Source: Candidatus Nomurabacteria bacterium (lineage in GTDB: Bacteria > Patescibacteriota > Minisyncoccia > Phycocordibacterales > UBA918). Taken from it: DNA of 64,000 nucleotides. Each line of letters opens with the position of its first letter. Position 1 is the stretch's first letter. Location: contig JACKGF010000002.1 in the NCBI GenBank assembly GCA_020632095.1, forward strand, positions 16,502 through 80,501, read 5' to 3'. Positions 8,694 through 58,234 of this stretch are shown in pieces. The position numbers and the translations under genes are program-made. The notes beneath the pieces are model-generated. The model did no database searches. It saw nothing but the letters and a program-made list of their open reading frames with translations, and was not told the origin of the DNA.

Positions 8694-8803
8694 AGAAAAA
8701 TTTAAAATTTGTTAATTGATTGAATAATATCATATTTGGGGTTCAGGGGCCGCGCGAAGCGCGGCCCCTTTCCTATCTCAATCCCCTCTGCTACACTCGA
8801 GAC

Positions 8804-9709
8804 ATGAACAAACCCAAGGTTATGGCCATCGTAGGACCAACCTCCTCCGGCAAAACGTCACTTTCTATTGATATCGCCAAAAAGTTCCGTGGTGAGGTGA
8901 TTTCGGCTGATTCTAGGCAGGTTTATCGCGGCATGGACCTTGGAACCGGAAAAGTCACCAAAGAAGAAGCTGATGGTATCCCCCATCACCTACTCGACAT
9001 AGCCGACCCAATGGAAGTCTACAATGCAGCCATGTTTGAACACGACGCAAAAATCTCCATTGCTGAAATTTCTAAACGTGGCAATTTACCAATCATCACC
9101 GGTGGTTCATCCTTCTACATCGACCTCCTCCGAGGCCAGTTGCAGTCTGCCCCCGTCCCACCAAACGAAGAATTTAGAACTGGTTTAGAAAAATTCTCAA
9201 ACGCCGAACTTTTCAAGAAAATAGCAGCGGCCGACCCCAGACGAGCCGAAATGATCGATCCAGACAACCGTCATCGGTTAATTAGAGCTCTAGAAATTAT
9301 CAATGTCCTTGGTGTAGTTCCTGAATCTACTAAAAGTGAGTCTGATTACAATTGGCTTGTTTTGGGGGTACAAGTAGAAAAAGAAAAACTCCATCAAAAT
9401 ATTCACCAACGATTGGAACAAAGAATCAACGACGGAATGATTGAAGAAGTAAAAAGACTTCACTCTGCAGGATTAACTTACGAACGGATGGATAAACTCG
9501 GATTAGAATACCGCTATGTAGCAAAATATCTGCAAAATGAACTATCCCTAGAAGAAATGACTGAGCAATTAGAATACAAAATCAAACAATACGCCAAGCG
9601 ACAAATGACATGGCTTAAGAAAGACAAGGAGATCGTTTGGGTCGCGCCGGAAAATCGCGAAGCGATTTTCCGACTAGTCATCAACTTCCTCCAAGAACAA
9701 CCAAGTTGA
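8804..9709 (+). CDS. miaA: tRNA dimethylallyltransferase
   Basis: P-loop VMAIVGPTSSGKTS followed by ADSRQVYRGMDLGTGK. The annotated ORF begins at 8720 but a GC hairpin occupies 8745-8772, so the start at 8804 is preferred. Confidence 0.9.
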   Translation: MNKPKVMAIVGPTSSGKTSLSIDIAKKFRGEVISADSRQVYRGMDLGTGKVTKEEADGIPHHLLDIADPMEVYNAAMFEHDAKISIAEISKRGNLPIITGGSSFYIDLLRGQLQSAPVPPNEEFRTGLEKFSNAELFKKIAAADPRRAEMIDPDNRHRLIRALEIINVLGVVPESTKSESDYNWLVLGVQVEKEKLHQNIHQRLEQRINDGMIEEVKRLHSAGLTYERMDKLGLEYRYVAKYLQNELSLEEMTEQLEYKIKQYAKRQMTWLKKDKEIVWVAPENREAIFRLVINFLQEQPS

Positions 9710-9771
9710 CCTCCTGCCCGCTTTCGCCTAATATAACTGCCACGAGCAATTATCAAAACAATCACTACCAC

Positions 9772-9842
9772 GGGTCCATAGTTTAGTGGTAAAACAGTGG
9801 TCTCCAAAACCACCGTCCTCCGTTCGAGTCGGAGTGGACTCG
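9772..9842 (+). tRNA. tRNA-Trp (anticodon CCA)
   Basis: Acceptor gggtcca/tggactc, anticodon loop cuCCAaa, T-loop ttcgagt. Confidence 0.85.
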
Positions 9843-9904
9843 CAGAAAATAGGCAAACTTAAACCCTAAGAAAACAATATTCTTAGGGTTTTAGTTTTAC
9901 TAGA

Positions 9905-10960
9905 TTATTGAGCGTAAATTGAAAAATGCGGTGCAGAAATCCAACTTCCAAGAACCTTCACGCTATCAGCTGGCGCTCCAGCGGCCACCACAGCAGCCTT
10001 TTGAGCTGGAGTACTTACTTCATAAACAGGACGTAACCCATTAGCAGTGGCCGCATTAATCACTTTTACGACATCGTTTGGAGCCATGCCACCTCCAACA
10101 CCATAGTCGACACAAGTCCCATTTTGATGGCAAGGACTCTTGTGAACACGAGTAGGCGGCATAGCTTCTGTTACTCTTGCTCCAGCCACTCCAGCTGCCT
10201 GATGCATAGCTAGTAATTTAGGTTGTAATTCTGAAGATATTGAACAGCTTGCAGTATTTTTACAAGGTACAGCACCGAGCGGTACACAACTACTTCCTGT
10301 ACAAGTAGCGGTCGGTGGACCAGAAGGCAAAGCCGGACTACTAACCACAACATCCCAGCAATTCACTTTATAATTTGTTGGATCTGTAGTATCAATCTCA
10401 GGATTTTTATTCAAAGCGGCACAAGCTGCCTCAGCAACAGAACAATCAATGTTACCTGAAGAGCCAGATGCAGCGCAAGCAGTGGTAGAAATAACGTTAG
10501 AACCACTATTGGGCATACTTGGATCTCCAGCCCAAGGAACTATAGTTGATGCTAATTGAGTATGACACTGAACCTCTGCCCATGGCCCATAACCTTGAAT
10601 ATTACCCGTACCACCATTTAGAAGACCTCTCATAATAGTGTCAACCAATAGAAAAGAAGCGAGAATTATAATTAACCCAATAAATGCATTGATAAACTTT
10701 TGCTTAGCAGATGACAATGCTTCTGAATTACCCCCTGAAGTAACTAGTCCAAAGCCAGCAATAACTGCCAAAACCGCAAAGAACAAAAACGCCATGGCAA
10801 TCAACCAAACCAAAACTTTATTTGCCATTTGAACGATGTTACAAGCAGAACAATCAGTACCGGAACAAGTTACAAAACTTTGGGCTGAAGCCAACTCTGG
10901 TAGAACAAATACAACAATTAATACAAGAGTCGGTATAAATTTCATAAGTTTAGTTTTCAT
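9905..10960 (-). CDS. secreted pilin-like (VirB2/TrbC-type two-helix) N-terminal domain fused to a Cys-rich C-terminal domain, possibly a LAS/M15-like peptidase
   Basis: Signal peptide, CSGTDCSAC motif, then hydrophobic helix-GFGLVTSGGN-helix, as in the other five paralogs. The C-terminus carries HKSPCHQNGTCVDY (His/Asp pattern). Confidence 0.55.
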   Translation of the reverse strand: MKTKLMKFIPTLVLIVVFVLPELASAQSFVTCSGTDCSACNIVQMANKVLVWLIAMAFLFFAVLAVIAGFGLVTSGGNSEALSSAKQKFINAFIGLIIILASFLLVDTIMRGLLNGGTGNIQGYGPWAEVQCHTQLASTIVPWAGDPSMPNSGSNVISTTACAASGSSGNIDCSVAEAACAALNKNPEIDTTDPTNYKVNCWDVVVSSPALPSGPPTATCTGSSCVPLGAVPCKNTASCSISSELQPKLLAMHQAAGVAGARVTEAMPPTRVHKSPCHQNGTCVDYGVGGGMAPNDVVKVINAATANGLRPVYEVSTPAQKAAVVAAGAPADSVKVLGSWISAPHFSIYAQ

Positions 10961-10968
10961 AAATTATA

Positions 10969-11997
10969 TTAAGGTAATTTACTAGCCACATCAGCCACCT
11001 TTACTACATAAGCTCGTGTCTCGTTATATCCAGTATTCGGAGTACAACTGGTGTTTGAAGTACCATAACACCCTGGAGAATCCCACTTACATTCCCAGCG
11101 CATCAACCCCGGACAATCTCTACTAGCACCGTTTGCTCCAGCCCCTCCGTTATAGGCAGCGAATATTTTTCTCTCGTCACCTTTGTAAGTATTATATAAA
11201 TCACTGTAAATCACTGTCCCAAGACTTATGTTGTAATCTTGATCAAGTAACTTTGCCCTTACATCAGCATCACTCAAACCAGCTAATGTAGGGTCATAAT
11301 TTCTGGCAGTATTTGGCATAATCTGCAAACAACCAAGCGCTCCAACCGGACTAACGTTGTTTCTACACCCACCAGACTCTACTCGCATTAACGCTTGTAG
11401 GTTTTTAGTTTGAGTAGCATCTAACCCAGCGGCAGCGGCAGCGGCAGCCACTTTTGCATCTGGAGCAGATAAAGAGGCCAAAGAAGCAATTTGAGCAGGT
11501 GTTAAATTACCCACAGCGGCAGTATTAGCGATTCCACGTGAGGCATTAGGAACAGGGTTGTAAATTCTTTGTATTCCAGACTTAGGCTGATCTACACATT
11601 GAATAGTATTCCATGGACCAAAAGCAAACGGTCCGGTTCTCAGCAAAGCCTTCAAACCATAATCTATCAACAACCAAGCTGATAATAAAATAGCGAAGCC
11701 AATCGCTGCATTAGTAATCATACTTTTAGCCGCTTGTTTCTCGCTTGGATTACCACCTGAAGTCACCAACTTAAAACCAGACACCATAATCATAATAGCC
11801 ATCACAATCGACAATATCATTACCAACCAGCCTATAACTGTGTTCATTAGAGTTGCTACATGACAAAATTGACAAGCCTCTTCACCCGGGCCACCGCATG
11901 GCACTAACCCATTTGCCCAAACTAAAAGTGGGGTTGTAATAAGTAGTGCTAGGAGCGACAAAAAAATTTTTCGATTCATACCAAAATAATAGCACAA
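10969..11997 (-). CDS. pilin-like N-terminal domain fused to a lytic transglycosylase (SLT) domain
   Basis: N-terminal CGGPGEEACQFC plus SGFKLVTSGGNP two-helix module. C-terminal SLT motifs (catalytic-Glu motif VESGG, LQIMP, AAYNGGAGA). Confidence 0.7.
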   Translation of the reverse strand: MCYYFGMNRKIFLSLLALLITTPLLVWANGLVPCGGPGEEACQFCHVATLMNTVIGWLVMILSIVMAIMIMVSGFKLVTSGGNPSEKQAAKSMITNAAIGFAILLSAWLLIDYGLKALLRTGPFAFGPWNTIQCVDQPKSGIQRIYNPVPNASRGIANTAAVGNLTPAQIASLASLSAPDAKVAAAAAAAGLDATQTKNLQALMRVESGGCRNNVSPVGALGCLQIMPNTARNYDPTLAGLSDADVRAKLLDQDYNISLGTVIYSDLYNTYKGDERKIFAAYNGGAGANGASRDCPGLMRWECKWDSPGCYGTSNTSCTPNTGYNETRAYVVKVADVASKLP

Positions 11998-12097
11998 GAA
12001 AACTTTGAAAAAGTGCCAGAGTGTGATATTTTGTTCGCACTCGTATTTTTATATCAAAATAATCTACGATAGGGATTTTCCTTAAAAAATTAAATAT

Positions 12098-12180
12098 GCG
12101 TCGGTGGCAGAGTGGTCAATTGCATTAGACTGTAAATCTAACGGATTTATCCTACGGGGGTTCAAATCCCTCCCGGCGCA
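12098..12180 (+). tRNA. tRNA-Tyr (anticodon GTA), long variable arm
   Basis: Acceptor gcgtcgg/ccggcgc, anticodon loop cuGUAaa. Followed by a terminator hairpin aaaaataaccc...ggggttattttt. Confidence 0.85.
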
Positions 12181-12391
12181 CGCGTTAAAAATAACCCTAT
12201 AACAGGGGTTATTTTTGTTGGGACAGGGAGAGAGTTCGACACTTCTTTTAAATATACTTTTGACTTTTCACAAATATTTAATTTACATTTAGTCAATTCT
12301 TTGCTACTATATTACATAAATATATCTCTTATTTCAAGCCATATATTAACATATTAAGTCAATTAATAATTTGTCTAACGTCAATTAAATT

Positions 12392-13549
12392 ATGTACGAA
12401 TTAAAATTGTTCAACCCATCTTTTGACACTGAATTAGTGGATTTGATTGTTGACTTAGATCAATTGCGGCGGAAAAAACTAGGAGGAAGTACTCACCCTG
12501 CTATCTTCTTTCAATTAAAGAATATTTTTCACACTCTTGAGAGTATTGGTTCGGCACGTATAGAAGGTAACCATACGACAATTGCAGAATTCATTGAAAC
12601 AAAAATAAAGAGTAAAAACGACACAGGAATGGTGAAAGATGAAAAAATCCGCGAGATTCAAAACGGTGAAAAGGCCTTGGAATACATTGATCGGCAGATA
12701 GGTGAATTAGGTGGACAAATAACTGCTTCTTTTTTGAGTGAGATCCATAAAATTGTGGTTGATGGACTAACTCCACACCCTGACGGAGAAGGAAGCAAAA
12801 AACCTGGATCTTACAGAAATGTAAACGTGATAATTGGCGGATCTAATGTAGTTACTGCAGAGTTTCCGCTTGTACCTAATCTCATGAACGACTTAATTAC
12901 GTTCATCCAGAATCCTGATGCAGAGAAATACGACTTGTTGAAAACAGCTATTTCACATCATAGATTTACCATCATCCATCCTTTTGACAATGGTAATGGA
13001 CGTACAGTTCGCCTACTAACTTATTCTATGCTGGTTAAGCAGGGATTTAACGTTAATGTTGGTAGAATTTTAAACCCAACAGCAATTTTTTGTAGTGATA
13101 GAGAGAATTATTATAAAATGCTTGGACTTGCTGATAAAGGTACGGAAGAAGGTCTACGCGAATGGTCAGAATATGTGCTTAAAGGTCTCAAGACAGAAAT
13201 TGAAAAAGTCGATAAGTTATTAAATTATTCGTACTTATCAAAAAACATCCTTGAGGTCGCTGTAGCACACGCACTCGAGAGAAAACTCATCACTGATACC
13301 GAAGCGCATATTTTGAAAATTGCGATTGAAAAACAAGTAATTCAGCAAAGTGACATTAAACACATATTCCCTGGAAAAGACGCCTCTCAGGTCTCTCGAG
13401 TAATTAAGAAACTACTTACCGAAAATATAATTACAACAGAACGTGAAAGCAAGAGAAAGTACATATTAAATTTTCAAAATAACTACCTTTTGCGAGGAAT
13501 AGTGAAGGCTCTTGATAACGAAGGCTTCCTGCCAGCCAGTCTTAAATAG
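12392..13549 (+). CDS. Fic/DOC family protein (AMPylation-type) with a C-terminal wHTH-like region
   Basis: Fic motif HPFDNGNGRTVRLL. The N-terminal SARIEGN resembles an inhibitory helix motif. Confidence 0.85.
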   Translation: MYELKLFNPSFDTELVDLIVDLDQLRRKKLGGSTHPAIFFQLKNIFHTLESIGSARIEGNHTTIAEFIETKIKSKNDTGMVKDEKIREIQNGEKALEYIDRQIGELGGQITASFLSEIHKIVVDGLTPHPDGEGSKKPGSYRNVNVIIGGSNVVTAEFPLVPNLMNDLITFIQNPDAEKYDLLKTAISHHRFTIIHPFDNGNGRTVRLLTYSMLVKQGFNVNVGRILNPTAIFCSDRENYYKMLGLADKGTEEGLREWSEYVLKGLKTEIEKVDKLLNYSYLSKNILEVAVAHALERKLITDTEAHILKIAIEKQVIQQSDIKHIFPGKDASQVSRVIKKLLTENIITTERESKRKYILNFQNNYLLRGIVKALDNEGFLPASLK

Positions 13550-13589
13550 TTACTCAAAATTGTCGAACCAACTCCAGCTCGGCGCACGA

Positions 13590-14300
13590 ATACAGTAAAC
13601 AACCACCGGCCTTAGGGCCGGTGGCTTTGGCTCAACCTAACGGCGTGAGCTTCAGGCCCGCGAAGCGGGCAGATACATAGTTAATCAGAGATAAGTTTGG
13701 TAAAGAGAGATGGTTGATCAACTTGATTATGGTGATGTTGGTGTTTAACATACCGACAGATAATCATTTCATCTAGACCAATCGTAGAAACAAAATAGCC
13801 TCTGGCCCATGGTGACTTTTGTTCATAAAGACCATGAGCTCTTTTAATTTTCTTTTTTAACCAAGCTGAGCTTTTGTGCCTTTAATCATCTGCATTATGT
13901 ATGAGATGGAGTCTCTAGGTGAAGCTGATAGAATCATGTGTATATGGTCTTCTTGGATATTGAGTTCAATGATTTCCCAGTGTTTCCATCTTGTTATGGT
14001 TTCAAAGGTTATTCGAAACTCATCTTTAACCTTTTGTGGGCCTAGTACCTTACCTCGGTATTTTGGAGTCCATACTAGGTGGTATTTCATTTCGTAATAA
14101 CAATGTGATAGGGTTTTAATGGTACGTTTGCGTATACGTATTGTATTAATTACTAAAGCTGTCCTGCCGGACAGCTTTAGTATATGCGTTGCCTGCAAAC
14201 GTACACTCCGGCTGAAGCCGGAGGTTTTTAGATATAAACATCCCGTGACCTTGAGGCCACGGGTAGGGTTACAGACTCGGCACAAGCAGCCCAAGTCTCT
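13590..14300 (-). mobile_element. IS200/IS605-family element (tnpA only), probably inactive
   Basis: Y1 HUH transposase remnants flanked by sub-terminal hairpins (gctgtcctgccggacagc, ccggctgaagccgg, cccgtg...cacggg at the left end; ccaccggccttagggccggtgg at the right end). Confidence 0.55.
13681..14090 (-). pseudogene. tnpA: IS200-type transposase TnpA, frameshifted in an A-run
   Basis: MKYHLVWTPKYRGKVL...DHIHMILSASP (HUH) is in one frame. The C-terminal KSPWARGYFVSTIG (catalytic Tyr region) is in the -1 frame after ggttaaaaaag near 13850. Confidence 0.6.
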
Positions 14301-14780
14301 ATAATTTATTACACATTTCGAGGTATCTTCTTTCTCCTTCACTTGCAGGATTGACCTTCTGCTGCTCTAAATCATGAATTCTTCTAGGGTCGCGATTCCT
14401 AATGAACTGATTTCTGAGGAAAATAAGCTGTTTTTTGCTCAGTCCTGACACTGGCGCGTTATCTGGAATATCGTGTACCATGTTCCATCTCCTTTTGTGT
14501 GAGTGAACATTATAATGGTAACACTTTTTTCGTAACACACTAAACTGAAATAAACCTCAAGAAAACGTGGGACAAAATGGAATAGTAAAACAGGACCTGT
14601 TGCAATTCAATCTATAGTTTAAAAAATAATTCTTTTCTTCTTATAGAACTGTATTCATTTATGATTGTCAAAAACTTTTTCAACAATTAAACCGGGGTCG
14701 TTTCAAAACAACTTGACGTTATACCAATCTGCTATATTCTCAAGAAAGAAACTTTGTTCCCACAACCAAAGAGGTGGTGC

Positions 14781-15111
14781 TATGATGCATATAATTTTGG
14801 TAACAGGATTCACAGTTTATAGTTTCTTCACCCAAAAAACTATTAAGATTGAGGAGCCCAACCCATGCTGGGTCATCAGAAATAGTAACGGAGCTGGAGT
14901 AGTAGCCAGAGATAACTTCATGCTGGTTTTTTCCAGCATCGAGAAACTTCGTTATTTTGTCACACACGAATCTCTTGAAGATTTTGTTCCTCAAAGATTC
15001 ACCTGGGAAAATCTGGTCGAAACGTTTGGTGGCTATTTTTCCGAAGCTATCATCAATCACACAGGTAGTAAAGGAAATTTTATTTGTATCCCCTTACAGA
15101 AAAATCCTTGA
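14781..15111 (+). CDS. hypothetical protein
   Basis: ORF with AAGAGGTGGTG SD-like sequence before the ATG and no domain recognised. Confidence 0.35.
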
Positions 15112-15290
15112 TTAGTAAAATCCAAGCAACCAAATCGCTCAGCCTGCCTGAGCGATTTTATTATCCACAATGAATTAATTAGCAAGCAACTCTAAACTCC
15201 CTCTACTCCATCTTCAAAACCATTGACTTACTCTCAATATAAGAATATGGTGATTTGAGATCAGTTAACTCAACCTAAGGAGAATAAGCC

Positions 15291-16061
15291 GTGCTAGCAC
15301 CTTATATTGGAATCAATGACTTCATGTATCTCGGGCAAGTTGAAGCTATACTCAAGTTTTTCAAGTCGCTCTTACCGATAGGTTCAAACCGCTTGCTTCA
15401 CATCGGTACAATGATGAGTTACAAGACCCTCAACGAGATCGACTGTGTCTGGCTCGAGGCCTTTGCGCCGAAAGAAAGGTTGGCAGAAATTTATAGTTTG
15501 AAAGAAACATAGAACTGCCTACACTACGCCAGTTTCGGTCACGAACCCAGCCTGCGTGACAGCATCTCAAAAGCAATCGCTTACGGCGGACCCAATCTGG
15601 ACGCAATCCAGCTAGACATGACCTGGCCCGACCCAGAAGAAATTCAGTTTGGCCTAGCGACAGCAACCAGGCCAATTGAAGTTATTCTGCAAATCGGCAC
15701 AGACGCCATGGAGCAAGAAAACGACAACCCTAGCAATGTTGCTCGGAGACTGAAAAAATACGATGGTTTGATTTCACGTATTCTGCTCGACAAGAGTATG
15801 GGTAAAGGTTTAGGCATGGATGCTATTAAACTAATCCCCTTTGCCAGAGCCATCAGCGACAGATTCCCGGAGTTGGGTCTTGGTGCCGCTGGCGGACTGG
15901 GGCCAGATACCACGCACTTGGTTTCGCCCTTGTTAGAAAAATTTCCAGATTTGAGTTTTGACGCCCAAAGCAAACTTCACCCCAACGGGAATATTTTGCT
16001 TCCTGTAGACTTGGGTTTTGCAAAAACCTTCCTACTCAGGTCTCTAGCGTTGACTGGATAA
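15291..16061 (+). pseudogene. phosphoribosylanthranilate isomerase (TrpF)-like gene interrupted by a single in-frame TAG
   Basis: Two ORFs in the same frame (15291-15512 and 15618-16061) are separated only by a TAG at 15510. The joined product resembles TrpF weakly (AIQLD, AAGGLGPDT, LSFDAQSKL). Confidence 0.45.
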
Positions 16062-16179
16062 AAAATAATATCTAGCGTGTTAGACCAGTCATGCAACACT
16101 TTTCGTAAAACTTCAGGTCAACCGCCTGAAGTTTTTTCTTGACATAATAGTAAAAACGTTATAAAATGCTAGTCTTGGT

Positions 16180-17185
16180 TGTATGGTCCCTCCAGCTACC
16201 CCTCAAGTAGGACAGATTGCTCATAATAATACTCACTCGAAATCCTAAAATCAATACACTCTTTCGGTCGGTCATTCAAGAAGGTATGAATCTCATTCAA
16301 TTCTTCTTGAGTAACAGACGCAATGTCTCTCCGCTTTGGAACAAAGCATCTAATCCAACGATTAGTATTCTCTACCAGTCCCTTCTCCCAAGAATGATAA
16401 GGGTGGCAGAAATAGATTGGAGCCTGTATGATTTGTTCTAGTTCCGTCCAGTGACGGAATGCAATGTCGTTGTCGGTGGTGATACTCTTGACTATAATAT
16501 TGCTAAACATTTTAGAGAACGCTGCACTGATTGTGTGGCGTTTTCTATTGGGTAACTGACGTACCAAGCTGTATTTAGTTAAACGGTCAGTAGCCACTAG
16601 AAGTACGTATGGACTGTACTTAGAGACAATGAAGTCTAGTTCATAGTGACCTAGCTCATGGCTACCAAGAGGACGAATATCTATATATTTACGGCCATCA
16701 TCAGCTGGTTTATGTGTGGTCCGTTTCGGACCACTTTTCTTTTTGTTCCAACGCCAGAATAGTCGATATTCCAGACCACGACTTTCTATGAACTTGTATA
16801 TAGCTTTGGCGGAACAGGTAACACCGAGCTCTCGTTTGAGATGTCCACTGATTTGTTTAGGGGTCCACTTCTTCTCCAATTTGTCTTCTACGAAACGAAT
16901 CAGGAAACTATCTAGAGCCACCTTGAGACACTGTCGTTTAGCGCGCCAACGACGTTGACTTACTTTTAGTTGGGCTTGCTTGGCGTCATAGACTCCATTA
17001 ACCCTATTCTTCTTTAGTTCCTGACTGATGGTGTTGGGACTACGTTTGAGGAAGATGGCTATTTCTCTGATCAAACTCCCTGCGTTCAATAACTTTTCAA
17101 TTACGAAACGCTCCTCAAATTGTATGTGTCTGTATGTTTTCATAGACAGCGAATTTACTTTATAGCTGTCCTACTTCAAAGGTGT
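16180..17185 (-). mobile_element. IS30-family insertion sequence
   Basis: Contains an IS30 transposase. The ends carry inverted AAGTAGGACAG (16186-16200 region versus 17165-17179). Confidence 0.6.
16196..17143 (-). CDS. IS30-family transposase
   Basis: N-terminal HTH and a DDE core with an IS30-like signature (TTDNDIAF, HPYHSWEKGLVENTNRWIR). Confidence 0.9.
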   Translation of the reverse strand: MKTYRHIQFEERFVIEKLLNAGSLIREIAIFLKRSPNTISQELKKNRVNGVYDAKQAQLKVSQRRWRAKRQCLKVALDSFLIRFVEDKLEKKWTPKQISGHLKRELGVTCSAKAIYKFIESRGLEYRLFWRWNKKKSGPKRTTHKPADDGRKYIDIRPLGSHELGHYELDFIVSKYSPYVLLVATDRLTKYSLVRQLPNRKRHTISAAFSKMFSNIIVKSITTDNDIAFRHWTELEQIIQAPIYFCHPYHSWEKGLVENTNRWIRCFVPKRRDIASVTQEELNEIHTFLNDRPKECIDFRISSEYYYEQSVLLEG

Positions 17186-17221
17186 CTGGGGGTCAAACTG
17201 TTCATTAGAGAGGACTCAAAA

Positions 17222-17716
17222 ATGAAAAAAGGTGTCATCGTCTGTGCCTTCCCTGCCACTGGCAAAAGCACAGCAATCCAAAATGCCACGCGACTCGGTA
17301 TCAGTGCATGAGACTCGGATTCAGAAGACCATCACTGGGTAGACCGTACTCTTCCTCGTGAAGAGCGTGTTGAACGTAAAAACTGGGTCGAAGACTATGT
17401 ACACCATCTGCAGAAGCAGACAAGGTTGAATGACTTTGCATTCGCATCCACGCACGAAGTGGTACGTAACGCTTTGGTAGCCGGAGGCGTGCACTTCGTG
17501 GTCGTGTATCCAACCAACGACCAACGTGACGAGTACATCAAAAGGGTCGCGGATCGCACGACTGGTCTCCACGGTCAGTTTGGCGTCAGTCTTCTGACCA
17601 ATATGTGGCACACATGGCTCACTCAGATGGAGAAGCAACCTCATTGCGGACGGGTCGTCCTGCAGCAGGGACAATACCTGTCTGACGTACTTACCACAAT
17701 ACAGGATCAAGTATAG
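17222..17716 (+). pseudogene. P-loop NTPase/kinase-like gene interrupted by a single in-frame TGA
   Basis: Walker A motif AFPATGKST. The same frame continues through a TGA at 17309-17311 into the 17426-17716 ORF. Confidence 0.4.
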
Positions 17717-17909
17717 TGGTCACATAAACTACCACTTCCAGCTCCCGCCGGCGAAGAACAACTCCAGTTGTCTTCCCTGCTGGAGCTGTTTTTCGCTTTT
17801 CACAAGGGAAAATTCACTATTTCTTCTAATGCGAATATTCCATCTCTAGCTCCTAACACTTGGACAATGCCGAATTTCACATAAGTTTATCTTAAAATAA
17901 ACTTATGTC

Positions 17910-18158
17910 ATGGATATTAAAATACAAAAAAATACTATTGGACTGAAGGATCTCCGAGAGAATATGGAGACATCTATTAAAAGAGTAAACGAGGGTGAAT
18001 CTATCACTGTCTTCCGAAGATCTACCCCTTTATTTCGCATTTCCCCGATTGATGCAGTAGAATCTGGCAGGGAAACTGTGATTGATTTTACCAAAGAAGC
18101 TGGAGATGGAATTTCAGACAAAGAACTACTAAGGGTAATGAAGCGGGTGCATGAATAA
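17910..18158 (+). CDS. type II antitoxin, Phd/YefM-like
   Basis: 82 aa with the pattern LKDLRENMETSIKRVNEGESITVFRRSTPLFRISPID, typical of a YefM/Phd fold. Confidence 0.55.
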   Translation: MDIKIQKNTIGLKDLRENMETSIKRVNEGESITVFRRSTPLFRISPIDAVESGRETVIDFTKEAGDGISDKELLRVMKRVHE

Positions 18159-18208
18159 GACTGAAAAACTTTTTAAAAAAACTCAATGAAAACGAGTTCC
18201 TTTCAGTA

Positions 18209-18418
18209 ATGATAGTAGTAGAGAAAATACTAGCTAATGATGTGATCAGTTTGGACATTAAAAAATTATCTGACCAAAAGGACATTTTTAGAGTTGGGAT
18301 TGGAGATATAGGAATTATTTTCTTAAAAGCTAACGATGATATCGAAATCCTAGAAATTTCTAGAAGAAGTGAAAAGACACAAAAAAATACTAGCTTTCCT
18401 AGTATAATATTAAAATAA
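18209..18418 (+). CDS. RelE/ParE-family toxin (N-terminus uncertain or degraded)
   Basis: C-terminal pattern FRVGIGDIGIIFLKANDDIEILEISRRSE. The open frame extends upstream to 18155 without an ATG, and overlaps the antitoxin stop. Confidence 0.4.
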   Translation: MIVVEKILANDVISLDIKKLSDQKDIFRVGIGDIGIIFLKANDDIEILEISRRSEKTQKNTSFPSIILK

Positions 18419-18440
18419 CTTCTTTAATAATTATTTTTCT

Positions 18441-18887
18441 ATGCCACCCAAGTTTGATTTCTCACAAAAATTTATATTCCGAATAACCGCTGTCGTAATT
18501 CTAATTCTAATGTTTCTTTCTGAAAAATTTTTGTCGCCAGGTAATTATTATATATATGGATTTGGTTTACTTACTCTTTTTCTTCTTAATGCCAAAAGTT
18601 GGAAAGAAGGATTATGGATAACGTTCAAATTTTTTGTTTCTATTGCACTACTGGGACTACTCTTTCTTTTTATTATGGGACATGGATACACATTACTCAC
18701 TAAATTATTAGGATTATCTGCCCTAGCAACTTTAGTTTCATTTATGATTGGACCGGCAGCCAAACAATACGAACCGCCTTTAAGTCCGAAAACCCTACAA
18801 ATTTTAGACATCTATATTCCACTAATTTTAATTGGCATTACTGCTATCCTCTCATTAATACTATTCGCTCCAGTCTATTTAGCTTGA
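18441..18887 (+). CDS. hypothetical polytopic membrane protein
   Basis: Four hydrophobic helices and no recognisable domain. Confidence 0.45.
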   Translation: MPPKFDFSQKFIFRITAVVILILMFLSEKFLSPGNYYIYGFGLLTLFLLNAKSWKEGLWITFKFFVSIALLGLLFLFIMGHGYTLLTKLLGLSALATLVSFMIGPAAKQYEPPLSPKTLQILDIYIPLILIGITAILSLILFAPVYLA

Positions 18888-18926
18888 AGAATCCCATACT
18901 TTTTCATTCTTTGATACTATAAAGCC

Positions 18927-20195
18927 ATGTTGAACGAAAAGAGTATCGAGGTAGTTGAAGCATCGACTTTTTCTAGTAATTTTCGGAAGCCGCTTTATGA
19001 TTCCTATTGTTTTTCAAACATCCCGGGAACAATCGAAAAACTCCTAACCGGTCAATCAAAACTAAAACAACTACCCACAGATGTTGTCTCTGGCGATAAT
19101 TATAAAAAAGTAGTTTTGTTTTTTATTGATGCTTTTGGCTGGCGTTTCTTTACACAATACAAAGACAAGTACCCTATCTTAAGACGCTTTATTGAAAATG
19201 GAACAGCTTCAAAAATAACCTCTCAATTCCCTTCTACCACAGCTGCCCATGTGACGACTATTCATACCGGCCAACGAGTTGACGAAAGTGGTATTTTTGA
19301 ATGGTTCTACTACGAACCAAAAGTCGACGCCACAATTTCTCCTTTACTATATTCGTACGCTGGCGACAAGGAACCTGGCACACTCAAAAACATCATTAAC
19401 ACGAGTGAAATATACCCAAACCACTCTTTATACAAACAACTTGACGAAGCCGGTGTAAATACCTACCTGTTTCAATCAAGCAATTTCACACCATCACCGT
19501 ACGGCAATGTAGTCACCGACGGAGTCCAAAACACAATTGCCTATACGAACATCGAGATAGCCCTAGCGGATTTGAGTAAGGCAGTTATCGATGAAGCCGG
19601 CAAAGCTTATTATTACTTTTACTATAGCGACATTGATACCGCCGGTCACATACACGGCCCAAACTCTAAAGAATTTGAAGCAAAAGTCGATTCATTTTTT
19701 ACTGCACTAGAAGAACTGTTTATCAACGTAGTAGACGGAAAATGTGATAATACTCTAATGCTTATGACAGCTGATCATGGTCAGACCGACATTGACCCAG
19801 CCACTACAATTTATCTAGATCAAGCAATACCAGAAATCATCACTTGGACCAAAACCAACAAGAAAGGCAACCTACTGACCCCGGGCGGAGGCTGCCGTGA
19901 CATGTCTTTGTATATAAAAGATGAATTCATTGATATTGCTCTCGAGCAGCTAACAAACTTACTGGAAGGAAAAGCCGAAGTGTATTTGGTTGACGATTTA
20001 ATAAAACAAAATTTCTTTGGAGATAAACCGAGCGACACTCTACTTAGCCGCCTTGGAAATATCTGTATCCTACCGTACAAAAATGATTCCGTATTTTGGT
20101 GGGATGAAGGACGATTTGAACAGAAATTCTACGGCCACCACGGCGGTCTCACCCCCGCCGAAATGGACACTATTTTCTTGTCGTTGGAATTGTAG
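18927..20195 (+). CDS. alkaline-phosphatase-superfamily phosphodiesterase/nucleotide pyrophosphatase
   Basis: Metal-ligand motifs FIDAFGW, STTAAHVTTIHTG, TADHG and HHGG. Confidence 0.8.
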   Translation: MLNEKSIEVVEASTFSSNFRKPLYDSYCFSNIPGTIEKLLTGQSKLKQLPTDVVSGDNYKKVVLFFIDAFGWRFFTQYKDKYPILRRFIENGTASKITSQFPSTTAAHVTTIHTGQRVDESGIFEWFYYEPKVDATISPLLYSYAGDKEPGTLKNIINTSEIYPNHSLYKQLDEAGVNTYLFQSSNFTPSPYGNVVTDGVQNTIAYTNIEIALADLSKAVIDEAGKAYYYFYYSDIDTAGHIHGPNSKEFEAKVDSFFTALEELFINVVDGKCDNTLMLMTADHGQTDIDPATTIYLDQAIPEIITWTKTNKKGNLLTPGGGCRDMSLYIKDEFIDIALEQLTNLLEGKAEVYLVDDLIKQNFFGDKPSDTLLSRLGNICILPYKNDSVFWWDEGRFEQKFYGHHGGLTPAEMDTIFLSLEL

Positions 20196-20254
20196 ATCTG
20201 CAACCATCCCAATCCTGCTCTTTTTTTACAAAAACCTGTGTGCCAAACATCCTC

Positions 20255-20992
20255 TTATTTACCTAAACAGTTTGCAAGCATTACTCTCAATTGAAAAATA
20301 GTATCCGACTTTAATTTAACCCGTAATGAATCTTTTTGGGCATCATTTAACAATTCACCCAAACCATCAAGAATATGTTTGTTATCCATTTTCTCAAGTA
20401 ACTTTATACATTGAACCAAGGTCTCTTCGAATGACATCCCAGATCGAGCCTTAACAATCTCTTGGTTAATAGGCCAGTTATTCTTGGCAAAAAAATTGAC
20501 ATCGAAAATATCACGACTCGTTTTTCCAACTCGCTCATACATAGCCATCAATTTATGGGCAAACATGTCTTCCCGAATCATTACCAACATAGATATTCCC
20601 AACAGTGTCTTCACATCATAGCGAGACCCGAATTGCCGGCGATTGACTTCGATTTTAATATTCTGTGACTGGGGATGATAAGAAATAATATTTAATAAGG
20701 TATATTTTTTTTGGTAAGAATTTTTAATCTCCCCATATTCCTTAACAATTAAATTTATTTTTTCAAACACTTCAGCCTCCTTTGTCTCATCCAACAAATC
20801 GAGATCAATATCTACAGAGTGTCGAGGTAAGCCATAAAACATCATAGCAGCTGTTCCACCTTTGAAGCCCAAATATGGAGAAATGGATGTGTCAGTATAA
20901 ATATCCTTTAAGATCTGCAGTATTGTACTTTTATGCTGGGGATAATCGAATTTCATATAGCTATATTTCATTATAGTCTGCAAAATATTCAT
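20255..20992 (-). CDS. abiEii: AbiEii/AbiGii nucleotidyltransferase toxin (DUF1814)
   Basis: Signature LGFKGGTAAMMFYGLPRHSVDIDLD. The annotated ORF extends to 21040, but the start at Met17 avoids overlap with abiEi. Confidence 0.8.
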   Translation of the reverse strand: MNILQTIMKYSYMKFDYPQHKSTILQILKDIYTDTSISPYLGFKGGTAAMMFYGLPRHSVDIDLDLLDETKEAEVFEKINLIVKEYGEIKNSYQKKYTLLNIISYHPQSQNIKIEVNRRQFGSRYDVKTLLGISMLVMIREDMFAHKLMAMYERVGKTSRDIFDVNFFAKNNWPINQEIVKARSGMSFEETLVQCIKLLEKMDNKHILDGLGELLNDAQKDSLRVKLKSDTIFQLRVMLANCLGK

Positions 20993-21554
20993 CCACCTTT
21001 TCTTGTAAGCGCTTATTTTTATATATTGGCAATATCTCAAAAACCTTTTTCCAATTCAAGTTAGCTAAATTATCAAAATGATAATCTTTACTAACATAAA
21101 GTCGGTCTAAAAATGCCCGCTCTTGAGTTGCAATTGAAAAATTATTTATGTGCTCAACACCAGCACTATTACTTAAAATATCGTCTTTTACTCTAACAAA
21201 CTGAATCATTTGATTTCCAGCTTTAACTTCTCGCTTAATATAAGATGCAACAAAAATGTTTCCATAAAACTGGAAGTTTACACCTTCTCTAGTCAAGACT
21301 GTCTCAAAACTTACATATGAAGGAGTGTAAATCCTAGTAGCTAATTCTAAGCTATTGTAGTCATGATCTTTAGCATAAAATCCTCTATGAACGCGGATTA
21401 ACTTTCCAGATTTAACATATGACTTTAAACGATCGCTCACTACTGTTTTGTTACCCTCCCTCCACAACAAAGCAACATCTTTAGTTGAAAAGATGGTTTT
21501 TGAAGATCTTAATAAAACTTCTAAATATTCTCCTTTTACAGGTTTTTTATCCAT
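20961..21554 (-). CDS. abiEi: AbiEi antitoxin/transcriptional regulator
   Basis: Lies immediately upstream of abiEii on the same strand. AbiEi_4-like N-terminal wHTH (LLWREGNKTVVSDRLKSYVKSGKLIRVHRGFY). Confidence 0.75.
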   Translation of the reverse strand: MDKKPVKGEYLEVLLRSSKTIFSTKDVALLWREGNKTVVSDRLKSYVKSGKLIRVHRGFYAKDHDYNSLELATRIYTPSYVSFETVLTREGVNFQFYGNIFVASYIKREVKAGNQMIQFVRVKDDILSNSAGVEHINNFSIATQERAFLDRLYVSKDYHFDNLANLNWKKVFEILPIYKNKRLQEKVDEYFADYNEI

Positions 21555-21557
21555 TTT

Positions 21558-21594
21558 ATGACTGGAAAGGGGTTTAAAGCACCTTTCCAGTCAT
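21558..21594. promoter_or_regulatory. perfect 13-bp-arm inverted repeat (candidate AbiEi operator)
   Basis: atgactggaaagg-N11-cctttccagtcat, 4 nt upstream of the abiEi start. Confidence 0.5.
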
Positions 21595-21870
21595 AATTAT
21601 AGCACATATGCTTGATTTTATGCAATAACAATTATGCAACAATTACATGGTGATCGCTTAAGGAACGGTTTTTCTTTTTATATCAACCTGTCACAGGTGT
21701 AGCCCATGTATGATTAACCTCTCCACAACCACATCTTTACACACTTTAAAATCATCACCTTTACACTACACTGGAGCCAACATGTATTATTGACATGTGT
21801 CTATCTTCATGATATGAAACATCCAGGGAGCAATTTTGCTCATTAACAAAGCGGGAACGGGAGAATAAAG

Positions 21871-22818
21871 ATGCCTACAGAAACGTTGTTTATCGAAATA
21901 GGTAATGGCTCATGCGGCGCAGGGTGTGGCCACTGTCCACACTCAAGGCAATCCGTACCGGACAGATGGACGTTTTCAGAAGCTCAACTAGATATGTATA
22001 AGCGTATCCGAGCCTACGGGAGCGTGGCTAACATACCTGTGAACACGAGTCTTTTGAACGACATCAACCAAGAAATTAACTACAGTTTCATCGACGGATC
22101 CCTATCGCTGTCAGTATGTGTGACGCTGGGTGAAATCATCGAGTCAAAAACACTCTTGGAGCGCTTGGAGCTTAAATTCGGAGGTCTTAACACCCCTTTT
22201 TCAGAAATCCGGTTTCAAGTTGAATTTGGGCCAGATATTTTGGCTCTGAGTACAGAACGGATGTTCAAATTACTCTGGTTTCAATCTCTAATTGCCGAAA
22301 AATTTAAGGTTCGAGCGGTGATTGTCGCATTCAACGCAAACACCTACAGCGAGAAAGTCGAGGATATCTACATAGACATAACAACAGTCGCCTTGAAGTA
22401 TAGATCTGTTGTAATATCGACCTTCGAAAGGTTAGTAACATCTTCAATGGTTTCAGTTGTCACAGAACCGTCGGTGTTGCGGATGTGGGCTCATGTGGAA
22501 GTCCCTACTCTTGGATGTCAACTTGTACTAGGCGGTCGTCTTCTTGAGAAAGACCATTCGCCTGATCAAGCAAAGATCATGGAGGACAGAAGTCGGCATG
22601 ATAATACGTGCATGGTTTCACTATTACCCAAGCATGTTCAGTTCAATCACATGACGTACAACATCAACGACCCATCACTCCGGTTCTCCTACGATGATTT
22701 CGGCAGAATCCTGACCGGAGTTCAAAAGAGACAAGGAGACCTTCTTAGGACACTCTTCCGTCACGTAGACGCACGTCGAAAGAGAAAGCAAAAAATGATC
22801 ACTGTTACATCGGCCTAG
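21871..22818 (+). CDS. hypothetical protein with an N-terminal CxxxCxxC motif (radical-SAM-like?)
   Basis: GNGSCGAGCGHCP is close to the N-terminus; the remainder is unrecognised. A terminator hairpin sits at 22843-22870. Confidence 0.45.
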   Translation: MPTETLFIEIGNGSCGAGCGHCPHSRQSVPDRWTFSEAQLDMYKRIRAYGSVANIPVNTSLLNDINQEINYSFIDGSLSLSVCVTLGEIIESKTLLERLELKFGGLNTPFSEIRFQVEFGPDILALSTERMFKLLWFQSLIAEKFKVRAVIVAFNANTYSEKVEDIYIDITTVALKYRSVVISTFERLVTSSMVSVVTEPSVLRMWAHVEVPTLGCQLVLGGRLLEKDHSPDQAKIMEDRSRHDNTCMVSLLPKHVQFNHMTYNINDPSLRFSYDDFGRILTGVQKRQGDLLRTLFRHVDARRKRKQKMITVTSA

Positions 22819-23218
22819 GAGGCGCCAAAAGTATGAAGGACCCCAGCATAGACTGGGGCCTTTTAATTGCACAGGATAATATCTACCGCCACACAACACC
22901 AACAAAGCAATTACTGCTTAACAAGTAAGTATTATCTAGCCACAGATTTCAAAACCTCCACCGCCCAGCATATGCTTCAGAATCTGAATTCTCCGCACTT
23001 AAAAACAGGATGGCGTAGTATACTTTGTTACTCAAATAACTAAATTTATAAATAATTAGACAAAAAAATTTGACTTAAAACAAATTTGGGTAGATATTAT
23101 TAAGCAAGTTGACTAGGTAACTAGCAACGAGTTCTTTCCTGCTGATATTTGTGGCAGGTTTTAAAATTGAGGAGAAAAAGGATCACATCCTGACTCTTCT
23201 GTCTGTTTGGAGAAAAAA

Positions 23219-23413
23219 ATGAATAATGCAACTCAAAATTCAGTCAAAGAATCCATCCTCTTTCCCAACCAAGGGTGGGGTGACCTTGATGCTAGTCTGT
23301 CACGAGTTAGTCTTGGTTGGAATCACACAACCAATACTTCCACAACACCATGCAATTGTACAAACAAAAGCAACGAATTTTGCACAATCTGCGGGGAAGC
23401 ATCCGGCGGATAA
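23219..23413 (+). CDS. small Cys-rich peptide (candidate modified-peptide precursor)
   Basis: GGAG SD before the ATG. 64 aa with a C-terminal PCNCTNKSNEFCTICGEASGG. A terminator follows. Confidence 0.3.
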   Translation: MNNATQNSVKESILFPNQGWGDLDASLSRVSLGWNHTTNTSTTPCNCTNKSNEFCTICGEASGG

Positions 23414-32072: not shown

Positions 32073-32250
32073 CACGACAGTACAAGAGCAGACTGGTAAA
32101 TCCCTGGGTGGAAGTCGAACCAAGGTTCGCCCTGTTACAGAGGCGGTACACCTTTTGGACAGATTATTCTTTCAGTCTAATCTTCCTCAAAAGGTCTTGC
32201 AAAACGCCCCCGGCATTTTGAACCCATAGAGGACTAACAACAAAACGTAT

Positions 32251-33682: not shown

Positions 33683-33748
33683 CTAACAACAAAACGTATT
33701 GCGAAAACAACCAGAATAAGTTACACTCTCGGTCATAAATAAGTATAT

Positions 33749-41078: not shown

Positions 41079-41079
41079 T

Positions 41080-42253: not shown

Positions 42254-42589
42254 TTAAGGAATAGTGAAAGCAGTAGCACAAGCTGGGCTAAAGTTTGGAT
42301 CTCTAGCACACTCAAGTTGCAAATCAAGCGCAAATGTTGCTACAAAGATAGATAGTATCGCATAAGCAGAAATCATGATAACTAAACCGATAATCCCAAA
42401 AGTAATATGCTTAACACCTTCCTGACGAGCAGTTTCATTGGTGGCATTCATGAAATATTGAGCACAACCATATAAAAAAATCAAAAAAGCAACTGCGCTA
42501 AGAAGAGCTATTAAAGGAAAGATGATGATATCATTCAACTTTTCGACAAACTTAGCTGCTTCTGCTACAGCCATTTGTTGTGGTGACAT
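42254..42589 (-). CDS. small pilin-like two-helix protein (paralog family)
   Basis: Hydrophobic helix-YGCAQYF-ETARQEGVK-hydrophobic helix. Same architecture as the other five paralogs. Confidence 0.5.
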   Translation of the reverse strand: MSPQQMAVAEAAKFVEKLNDIIIFPLIALLSAVAFLIFLYGCAQYFMNATNETARQEGVKHITFGIIGLVIMISAYAILSIFVATFALDLQLECARDPNFSPACATAFTIP

Positions 42590-42696
42590 ATGAAAATATT
42601 ATCACAAATACTAATTCTCCCTCGATAAGTTATCCCACGATTTTAGGCACCAAAAAAAGCCGCGTAAGCGGCTTTTTTGTAATTCTGTAACCGAAA

Positions 42697-43101
42697 TTAA
42701 GGAATTAGATTAGTCTTAGGCACGATAGTTGGATCAATAACCTCACCACTTAGACCAAAGAAAGTTGAGACAAGGTTGATGATTCCCCAGAAGACAATAA
42801 TCAAAACAAAGCCGAGAATTGAGTAAATCATCAAACTCTTTCCTGCTTCTTTCTTTTCGTCGTTGGCGCCACCAGCAATAAAGTACTGGAACATTCCCCA
42901 AACAAATACCAAGAAACCAATACCGATAATAAATGGAATGACTGTTCCATTAACAAAGGTCAGGATGTTAGTCAGATAAGTTTTCATCACATTGTTTGCT
43001 GGATCAAAACCACTACCAGCGGTTCCTCCACCTTGAGCTGATACCAAAGCTGGCAAAACCAACAAAACTGAACTTCCTATAAAATAACCAATTTTTTTCA
43101 T
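42697..43101 (-). CDS. secreted pilin-like two-helix protein (VirB2/TrbC-type; CPR 'T4SS pilin'-like family)
   Basis: Signal peptide, then GMFQYFIAGGANDEKKEAGKSL between two TM helices. Confidence 0.55.
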   Translation of the reverse strand: MKKIGYFIGSSVLLVLPALVSAQGGGTAGSGFDPANNVMKTYLTNILTFVNGTVIPFIIGIGFLVFVWGMFQYFIAGGANDEKKEAGKSLMIYSILGFVLIIVFWGIINLVSTFFGLSGEVIDPTIVPKTNLIP

Positions 43102-43270
43102 ACGTATTTTTTTATAAAATTAATAACGTTATAACGTTCCCTTAATTATAGACTACTAACTTAGTCCAACAATGTAACTTATTCACTTAGTGTGTAAAAC
43201 TATATTTTTACGTATATGGATAAGTTTCCCTATTATACACTAAATTCATGTTTTGTAAAGGGGTAAGACC

Positions 43271-43531
43271 TTACCGTAAGAAAGTTTGCTGGATCATTAT
43301 CACAATCCCCCAGGCGCTGATCATTAATACAAAAACAATTACTGCTGCAGTAGCGTATTTTTTACCCTCTTCACGTTTTGTCTCTTCACCAGCATTTATC
43401 ACCCAAGAATCAAACATTTTCCAGATTAGATAAAGAAACAAAACTCCAAATAAAGCTGGAATTAAGATATCAATAAAATCTATAATGTAATTCACTAAAT
43501 CTGCAAAGGTTGTTGGTGTTGTTGGTGTCAT
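43271..43531 (-). CDS. small pilin-like two-helix protein (paralog)
   Basis: Helix-WKMFDSWVINAGEETKREEGKK-helix. Confidence 0.45.
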   Translation of the reverse strand: MTPTTPTTFADLVNYIIDFIDILIPALFGVLFLYLIWKMFDSWVINAGEETKREEGKKYATAAVIVFVLMISAWGIVIMIQQTFLR

Positions 43532-43539
43532 AAGTTAAT

Positions 43540-43905
43540 CTAAGGCGCTGCAAAAGCTGTTACTAAATTAGAGATTATTTTCGAAATAGCTACTGCTCCG
43601 ATAATTAGAACCCCACCGATAATAGCGTAAGTGAGCGCTTGTGAAGCTTCTTGTATCTGGGCTGGATTCCCTCTTGCCACCACATACTTGAATCCAGAAT
43701 AGATAATAAAGAAAACTACAATTGGAATAGCAATGACAATTATTACATTCAATATAGCCACCAAAAAGTCTTCAATACTATTGAACGCTAGTGGGTTTTT
43801 GAAAGAGTAACTAATTTGAGCATTTGCTAACTGCGGAAAAACCAACAAAGTAAACACGACCATATTTAAAGCGACCGTGTGTAAATTATTAAATATTTTT
43901 TTCAT
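43540..43905 (-). CDS. secreted pilin-like two-helix protein (paralog)
   Basis: Signal peptide, then SGFKYVVARGNPAQIQEASQAL between two TM helices. Closest to the N-domains of the 9905/10969 proteins. Confidence 0.55.
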   Translation of the reverse strand: MKKIFNNLHTVALNMVVFTLLVFPQLANAQISYSFKNPLAFNSIEDFLVAILNVIIVIAIPIVVFFIIYSGFKYVVARGNPAQIQEASQALTYAIIGGVLIIGAVAISKIISNLVTAFAAP

Positions 43906-58229: not shown

Positions 58230-58234
58230 AAGCT

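Follow-up and report, generated by a model that had tools for sequence, protein, structure and literature searches.

Two adjacent genes of Candidatus Nomurabacteria are predicted to encode a lytic transglycosylase and a probable LAS-like peptidase, each on a VirB2-like pilin module

Are the proteins that match the VirB2-like pilin family in Patescibacteria all pilins, or do some of them carry a wall-cutting function that has seemed to be missing? The role of the patescibacterial type IV secretion system (T4SS) has been called "completely unknown" (PMC11665869), although epibiotic growth depends on the system and its VirB2-like pilins in the one species tested. A survey of this system counted PF18895 proteins as VirB2-like pilins of the monoderm-type T4SS and recorded 1,948 assemblies with both VirB4 and PF18895 pilins; because most genomes with such pilins had no recognisable VirB1, VirB1 was taken to be apparently dispensable for pilus biogenesis (PMC12102498). 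We analyzed a 64,000-nucleotide stretch of a Candidatus Nomurabacteria chromosome (Paceibacteria, Candidate Phyla Radiation; contig JACKGF010000002.1), hereafter called the window, in which two adjacent genes, A and B, each encode a pilin-like module followed by a putative wall enzyme. We propose, with moderate confidence in the statement as a whole, that A and B form a two-gene operon for matched extracytoplasmic peptidoglycan-cleaving enzymes, each on a VirB2/TrbC-type pilin module, and that, coupled to T4SS pilus assembly, the pair stands in for the VirB1/PrgK-type wall hydrolases, with the activities split between two pilin-tethered proteins.

The list of open reading frames (ORFs) places both genes on the minus strand, 8 bp apart (Table 1). 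The identical pair was present in a separate metagenome assembly (ENA k141_368132), in which the gene calls are 346 and 336 amino acids (aa), which points to the ATGs at 10945 (A) and 11979 (B) as the likely starts. Protein A is 100% identical to NCBI H6784_05095 from a Candidatus Nomurabacteria metagenome-assembled genome. The motifs CSAC and CQFC were located, as were AGFGLVTSGGN in A and SGFKLVTSGGN, VESGG, GCLQIMP and AAYNGG in B. Searches at E ≤ 1e-3 returned over 200 homologues of each protein, almost all with its architecture, and for each fusion type more than 200 were full-length and came from independent assemblies. Further, the same gene pair was found again in at least 15 other loci. 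Thus, mis-assembly or a frameshift was ruled out as the origin of the fusions, and the possibility raised in the original prediction, that the proteins are split into separate genes, did not hold. Every homologue with a named organism was annotated as Parcubacteria, Paceibacteria or Nomurabacteria.

Over 136 aa, the N-terminal module of A shares 35% identity with that of B (E 3e-21), so that the two modules are paralogues. Protein B matched T4SS_pilin (PF18895) with 45.9 bits, above the Pfam cut-off of 26.6 bits, and also matched the NCBIfam Mbov_0395 pilin-like conjugal transfer protein (E 3.9e-7); the module of A scored 140 bits with a custom module hidden Markov model (HMM). AlphaFold2 models were built from 45-sequence alignments and were confident, with a predicted local distance difference test score (pLDDT) of 86.3 for A and 85.7 for B. 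Both models begin with a signal helix, which is followed by two helices of some 35 residues each, a low-confidence linker and one or more globular domains. The helices span aa 39-73 and 79-113 in A (loop TSGGNSEAL) and aa 38-73 and 78-112 in B (loop TSGGNPSEK). The tandem arrangement of a signal peptide, a CxxC motif and a pilin-like two-helix module, which had been read from the sequence in the original prediction, was thus borne out.

Four cysteines accompany the helices and are invariant or nearly so among the 45 homologues of each protein. In A, C32, C37 and C40 precede helix 1 and C132 follows helix 2 in a GPW...C tail, all four being invariant; in B, the module Cys and Trp positions are 90-100% conserved. 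With the loop in the cytoplasm, all four cysteines would fall outside, which suggests disulfides stapling both ends of the hairpin. Most free pilins of the window do not have these four cysteines. At 336-351 aa and with C-terminal enzyme domains, A and B are not small single-domain pilins (about 70-130 aa). Assignment to the pilins of type IV pili was rejected, as there is no class III signal.

The C-terminal half of B was assigned directly. It matched SLT (PF01464) with 57.4 bits (cut-off 21.3 bits) over aa 195-289 of the 342-aa ORF. E201 and S202 are invariant among the homologues, and GC(L/M)QIMP and AAYNGG are conserved. The modeled domain has a goose-lysozyme-like fold, with a Foldseek probability of 1.00 to Slt (6fc4), MltC (4c5f), MltE (2y8p) and MltF, and it matched lytic tail protein and endolysin families of PHROGs. 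We firmly predict from these features that B is a family-1 lytic transglycosylase (glycoside hydrolase family 23) with an intact catalytic Glu-Ser, which cuts glycan strands, in agreement with the SLT domain noticed originally.

The C-terminal domain of A was recognized by more remote evidence. It had no match in Pfam, NCBIfam or PHROGs, and profile searches of PDB sequences gave spurious hits only. The Peptidase_M15 assignment that the original prediction had offered for checking failed at the level of Pfam: none of the curated M15 HMMs (PF13539, PF02557, PF08291, PF05951 and PF01427) matched A or any of 110 distant members of its family, and 25 C-terminal domains of this type had no M15 HMM match even at E up to 10. 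Nevertheless, four lines agree on a LAS-like zinc peptidase: conserved residues, fold search, sister proteins and profile comparison. No variation was seen at E265, H273, D285, E314 and H345 among 45 close homologues or among the 110 distant ones, which are at most about 40% identical; H278 is invariant in the former and at least 90% conserved in the latter. The spacing H278-x6-D285...H345 equals that of the SxHxxGxAxD...H motif of M15 enzymes, including sister fusions with a Pfam-annotated M15_3 domain. The best PDB match of the model was the N-terminal domain of Indian hedgehog (3k7j), which has the LAS fold (Foldseek probability 0.95, E 0.06), and the best viral match, in BFVD, was a phage "Peptidase" (weak, E 0.02). 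At the corresponding position, sister proteins with the pilin module have domains that Pfam annotates as Peptidase_M15_4, VanY, Peptidase_M15_3/M15_2 or HH_signal-type. When 134 LAS-like sequences were aligned with 18 Peptidase_M15_3 sequences using hhalign, 68 columns matched (P 3e-4, probability 39%) with the ligands in register, as were strand beta1, the H/D motif, helix 2 and strand beta3; a run with small profiles gave E 0.0046 against M15. The C-terminal domain of A is therefore probably a divergent LAS/M15-like zinc peptidase, as judged from its residue pattern and model. The His/Asp pattern claimed originally is conserved, and the peptidase identity attached to it rests on this remote evidence.

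Between the pilin module and this domain, A holds a small Cys-rich insert that was modeled with a pLDDT of 92-97 over aa 150-200 and has no Pfam match. About half of the orthologues have no copy of it, and the homologues P0215 and P0218 have two. The insert could be a spacer or a wall-binding module.

How general is this architecture? An exhaustive profile search with the LAS-like domain of A returned 845 clusters at 50% identity, 502 of them at E ≤ 1e-10. Among the 110 distant members, 104 matched T4SS_pilin (PF18895), 10 matched TrbC/VirB2 as well and none matched M15. The LAS-like domain is thus a large family outside Pfam coverage that is essentially always fused to the pilin module. A scan of genome contigs with narrow peptide patterns gave 16 loci, and local HMMs were run on 22 related loci. 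Gene order was constant: a B-type module with a glycosidase is followed by an A-type module with a peptidase. The B-type protein has either SLT (PF01464) or lysozyme-like SLT_3 (PF18896) as its glycosidase; the peptidase is LAS-like, M15_4 (L005 and L013), NlpC/P60 (L006), VanY or M15_3. The pilin module is a modular carrier for at least seven wall-enzyme domains. A-type modules retain 46-59% identity across different peptidase domains, compared with 35% to the B-type module of the same genome, which indicates two anciently separated module lineages, each with one enzyme class and with swaps within the class. The original prediction was right that a textbook T4SS does not combine pilin and hydrolase in a single protein; the arrangement is not a peculiarity of this locus, and belongs rather to a large conserved family of Paceibacteria.

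The mean pairwise identity of the pilin module is 0.55 for the A type and 0.47 for the B type, compared with 0.62 and 0.52 for the catalytic domains, 0.25 and 0.24 for the signal peptides and 0.30 and 0.33 for the linkers. The module is nearly as conserved as the catalytic domains and is therefore probably more than a mere membrane anchor.

These observations are accommodated by the following mechanism. A and B would be exported by Sec and lose their signal peptides, and their two hydrophobic helices would form a membrane hairpin, like a pilin precursor, with the TSGGN...AK loop toward the cytoplasm and both ends outside. The four cysteines on the outer face would probably staple the N-terminal segment to the segment past helix 2. 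On their flexible linkers, the catalytic domains would reach the peptidoglycan of the cell's own wall from outside, where B would cut glycan strands and A peptide stems or cross-links. The two proteins would share this labour as the two domains of PrgK, TraG (pIP501) and CwlT do, but as two polypeptides. The pilin module would replace the membrane anchor and would be recognized by the T4SS pilus-assembly platform. Opening of the wall would thereby be confined to the exit site of the VirB2-like pilus or channel, a plan that resembles that of FlgJ on the flagellar rod.

Is the pair linked to a T4SS? The window contains no T4SS ATPase; for A and B, the only evidence of a link is a related locus and the literature. 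In the distant relative P0301, a large N-terminal ectodomain precedes a pilin module (aa 395-459) and a LAS-like domain (aa 505-645). Its gene is the second one downstream of virB4; the locus reads PrgI, TraC-like, VirB4 (PF19044), a 345-aa ORF, P0301 and a 539-aa ORF, beside yidC-rnpA-rpmH and dnaA-dnaN. A dnaA-proximal T4SS locus has been described for Patescibacteria (PMC12102498), and the P0301 locus is exactly that site. P0260, which also joins a pilin module to a LAS-like domain, lies at the orthologous dnaA-proximal site in L028; its downstream gene is homologous to that of P0301 (E 7e-27), and the contig stops before any virB4. Where parts of the survey tables cover them, VirB4, TrsD, PrgI and PF18895 proteins are recorded in 4/4 Nomurabacteria genomes and VirB4 in 31/45 Paceibacteria (PMC12102498). 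In Southlakia, pilin arrays and the T4SS are essential (PMC10633639).

Within the window itself, four stand-alone VirB2-like pilin genes were found, all matched by the module HMM. They scored 23.6-35.3 bits with PF18895; the 121-aa protein also matched TrbC/VirB2 (PF04956) above the cut-off (30.3 bits), and the NCBIfam pilin-like conjugal transfer family was matched as well. These genes probably encode free pilins of the same system as A and B. There is no VirB4 near the array. Its neighbour (43925-45241) encodes a 438-aa secreted protein with a weak MalE-like match, for which no homology was found to the 438- and 539-aa proteins beside the dnaA-proximal fusions. Near the array are also divergent membrane proteins assigned to no family, at 39474-41078 (with a weak hint of the conjugal protein TIGR03750/DUF3487) and at 41047-42123.

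The surroundings of the pair are those of housekeeping genes. miaA (8720-9709) and tRNA-Trp flank it on one side, and tRNA-Tyr and a Fic gene on the other; farther away are ahpC, parB, relA/spoT and topA, with clpB at 24390-27110. The order clpB ... cassette-miaA-parB-relA-topA-dprA was repeated in the related loci L001, L003, L005 and L006 and, on the evidence of ORF sizes and Walker motifs, in most GTDB loci, including those of Kaiserbacteria and Nomurabacteria. In related genomes, clpB is much nearer to the cassette than in the window, where the interval between them (12392-24200) is insertion-rich and has a lower GC content (0.36-0.37 in places); it encodes Fic, an IS200-type Y1 transposase, an IS30-like integrase, a phosphodiesterase and an AbiEii toxin.

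Several points weigh against a pair of peptidoglycan-cleaving enzymes coupled to a T4SS. Protein A scored 25.6 bits with PF18895, marginally under the cut-off; B passed both the pilin and the SLT checks suggested originally. The peptidase assignment of A leans on weak scores (Foldseek E 0.06; hhalign probability 39%). The search for T4SS ATPases that had also been suggested was negative: VirB4, VirB3, VirD4 and VirB6 were absent from the 64-kb window, from 6.5 kb beyond its left end and from the syntenic loci, and extension of the window via RelA and FtsA matches revealed no T4SS genes. The cassette lies among housekeeping genes and outside T4SS clusters in all of about 15 loci of this lineage examined, and the free-pilin array is about 30 kb away from it. 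A virB4-adjacent relative was verified in one case only (P0301), and two other distant relatives are in unrelated contexts, between xseAB and POR genes and in a ribosomal protein operon. Further, VirB1 homologues near virB4 have been reported specifically in Paceibacteria (PMC12102498), so that a "missing VirB1" need not exist here.

Much of this context would also be expected if A and B were housekeeping autolysins, a glycan cutter and a peptide cutter for growth or division, in which the pilin-derived hairpin is merely a borrowed anchor with no tie to a T4SS. Their single conserved copy at a syntenic site near parB, topA and dprA in Nomurabacteria, Kaiserbacteria and other Paceibacteria fits this explanation, as does their separation from virB4 and the pilin array in this lineage; distant members are likewise found in unrelated housekeeping contexts, and reduced genomes need at least one set of lytic enzymes. 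However, a mere anchor should drift like the signal peptide (0.25), yet the identity of the module is 0.47-0.55. At least seven wall-enzyme domains are found on one module family, and LAS-like domains nearly always come with the module (104/110). Moreover, relatives adjoin virB4 or dnaA (P0301 and P0260), and a signal peptide, a two-helix hairpin and a Cys staple are elaborate for anchoring alone. We consider the autolysin explanation rather unlikely. A prophage lysis cassette, or endolysins of the signal-anchor-release type in which the hairpin is a holin or signal-anchor-release segment fused to lysins, is far less probable still. The PHROG matches of B to lytic tail proteins and endolysins, together with the weak match of the A model to a phage "Peptidase", would suit it, but phage genes were not found around the pair, chromosomal synteny is kept across many genera, A has no PHROG match and the families matched by the N-terminal module are those of conjugative pilins, not of holins.

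The high conservation of the module, as strong as expected of a polymerising subunit, would also be explained if the T4SS built the fusions into the pilus or onto its tip, and the filament bored through the cell's own wall into the host peptidoglycan at the episymbiotic contact. Evolved VgrG effectors of the type VI secretion system and phage tail lysins would be analogues of such fusions. Both termini of the pilin are on the outer surface of conjugative pili in the VirB2 and TraA structures, and the C-terminal domain of an incorporated fusion would therefore be displayed outward. Catalytic domains are exchanged on a constant module, as in polymorphic effector systems, and a small membrane-anchored ORF lies behind each fusion gene in L005 and L006. 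T4SS and pilins are essential for epibiotic growth in Saccharibacteria (PMC10633639), and a role in breaching host envelopes has been proposed for lytic transglycosylases (PMC11665869). If armed pilins of this kind exist, enzyme swapping on the constant module would reflect adaptation to differing host wall chemistries, and wall boring would create the episymbiotic junction through which the host is exploited. Nevertheless, a catalytic domain of about 140-220 residues on each subunit would crowd the VirB2 lattice, and some cultivated Paceibacteria parasitise archaea, which have no peptidoglycan (PMC10936435). Immunity-like ORFs were not found in the window, L001 or L003, and in L005 and L006 the small ORFs do not change along with the enzyme domain beside them. 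Toxin-immunity pairs were accordingly rejected: the L005 and L006 ORFs are homologous to each other although the neighbouring peptidase domains differ, and they are therefore not expected to be specific immunity proteins. Taken together, we regard incorporation of the enzymes into the filament as unlikely, and slightly more so than the autolysin explanation, and prefer hydrolases that act on the cell's own wall at the site of pilus assembly.

Table 1. Positions of the A/B cassette, its domains and associated features in the window
Feature	Position	Strand	Basis or remark
Gene A (pilin module, Cys-rich spacer, LAS-like peptidase domain)	9905..10960	minus	351 aa; 346 aa from annotated start 10945
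A: Cys motif C32-x4-C37-x2-C40, VirB2-like helix-loop-helix and GPW...C132	10556..10879	minus	PF18895, module HMM, identity to B
A: low-confidence linker, then small Cys-rich alpha/beta insert (about aa 150-205; 10346-10513)	10319..10555	minus	model, alignment
A: Cys knot and probable divergent LAS/M15-like domain (about 135 residues)	9908..10318	minus	invariant residues, Foldseek, hhalign
A: putative Zn ligand H278	10127-10129	minus	conservation pattern
A: putative Zn ligand D285	10106-10108	minus	conservation pattern
A: putative Zn ligand H345	9926-9928	minus	conservation pattern
Gene B (pilin module, lytic transglycosylase)	10969..11979	minus	336 aa from ATG; ORF reaches TTG at 11997 (342 aa)
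B: Sec-type signal peptide, aa 1-22 (...PLLVWA/NG)	11914..11979	minus	hydrophobic helix H2-22 in model; predicted cleavage site from sequence
B: Cys motif C-x7-C-x2-C, VirB2-like helix-loop-helix and GPW...C tail	11587..11913	minus	PF18895, NCBIfam, model
B: family-1 lytic transglycosylase domain and conserved Cys-rich C-terminal extension	10972..11424	minus	PF01464, invariant residues, Foldseek, PHROG
B: catalytic Glu201-Ser202	11374-11379	minus	invariant in homologues
Promoter-like site TTGATA-18-CAAAAT, 5' of gene B	12028..12057	minus	consensus scan only; weak evidence
Candidate bidirectional terminator, perfect 12-bp-stem palindrome between tRNA-Trp and the gene A stop	9861..9891	.	terminator scan
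tRNA-Trp	9772-9843		
Four stand-alone VirB2-like pilin genes (111, 134, 87 and 121 aa)	42254..43905	minus	module HMM matches all four

Other features were observed in the window and in the related loci. Two 1434-bp insertion sequence copies (32250-33683 and 58234-59667) are 100% identical and encode a 422-aa helix-turn-helix protein; each is flanked by its own direct duplication of 14-15 bp, TAACAACAAAACGTA and ACCAGTCTAAAAGC, suggesting recent transposition. A 182-nt tandem repeat (34527-35356; 4.6 copies, 99% identity) begins within the 3' end of tRNA-Leu(tag) (34465-34547), has a terminator-like hairpin in each unit and may consist of reiterated integration-site remnants. On the minus strand, positions 36046-38124 encode a 692-aa protein with about nine transmembrane helices and a C-terminal spermidine-synthase-like domain (weak Pfam match). 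In L027, a 1044-aa protein with a C-terminal LAS-like domain (10001-13135) is inserted in a ribosomal protein operon between the L5 and S8 genes. The small N-terminally anchored ORFs behind the pilin-enzyme genes are at 9477-9998 and 11181-11858 in L005 and at 9416-9988 and 10927-11649 in L006; they encode 173-190 aa and 225-240 aa, and no homologue was found in the window. A tblastn search of PLSDB plasmids with B gave no match.

A large share of the "pilin" matches in Paceibacteria are thus predicted wall-cutting enzymes on a pilin module, arranged as a conserved glycosidase-peptidase pair, so that VirB2-like genes may conceal the VirB1 function. The pair bears on what the patescibacterial T4SS does, and on the route by which the filaments of ultra-small episymbionts cross the wall of the cell itself and perhaps that of the host. 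The kinds of component are already known (VirB2-like pilin, SLT and LAS peptidase), and the fused architecture is implicit in domain databases; the Pfam accessions PF18895 and PF18896 are consecutive, which suggests that curators built them from such fusion proteins. No discussion of a fusion between a pilin and a wall enzyme was found in the searchable literature, nor were the split pair, the two module lineages, the swapping of at least seven wall-enzyme domains, the size of the LAS-like family or the virB4-adjacent position found described.

Among known systems, the LAS/M15 enzymes (VanY, M15_3, M15_4, phage T5 endolysin and the Hedgehog fold) share with A the H-x6-D...H spacing and the order of secondary structure. 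A differs from M15 enzymes in matching no Pfam M15 model, in a VTEA-PP sequence in place of the SGYR strand, in the additional invariant residues E265, H273 and E314, in cysteines that flank the first ligand and in the Cys knot ahead of the domain. The VirB2/TrbC pilins, including the PF18895 arrays of Southlakia epibionticum and Nanosynbacter lyticus TM7x, share with A and B the signal peptide, two long helices and a short polar loop; the likeness extends to the PF18895 matches and, for some members, to PF04956 matches, and the window itself encodes free pilins of this family. True pilins measure 70-130 aa and have no extra domain, and those of arrays average 25% identity (PMC12102498), whereas A and B have 336-351 aa, bear enzymes and an extra four-Cys motif and have a strongly conserved module.

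FlgJ (rod cap and muramidase), evolved VgrG3 of the type VI secretion system and phage T4 gp5 and tail-tip lysins also fuse a subunit of a trans-envelope filament to a peptidoglycan hydrolase, which restricts wall cutting to the structure being built. They belong to families and machines unrelated to those of A and B, and the analogy is functional only. In Agrobacterium, VirB1/VirB1* is an SLT lytic transglycosylase tied to T-pilus biogenesis, and B shares the SLT domain. Processed VirB1* associates with VirB2 and VirB5. However, Agrobacterium VirB1 is a separate periplasmic protein of a diderm and associates non-covalently, whereas in A and B, from a monoderm, the hydrolase is covalently joined to the pilin module. 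PrgK (pCF10), TraG (pIP501) and CwlT (ICEBs1), the VirB1-type hydrolases of monoderm T4SSs, are membrane-tethered and extracytoplasmic, cleave both glycan (by an SLT or muramidase domain) and peptide and open the wall for the T4SS. PrgK, TraG and CwlT are single polypeptides with one N-terminal transmembrane helix and a CHAP or NlpC/P60 peptidase, whereas A and B are two polypeptides, with a pilin hairpin behind a cleavable signal peptide, a LAS-like peptidase in A of this genome and genes outside any T4SS cluster. The likeness to these proteins lies in B, which comes from the same SLT family, and in the relative of A that is encoded just downstream of virB4.

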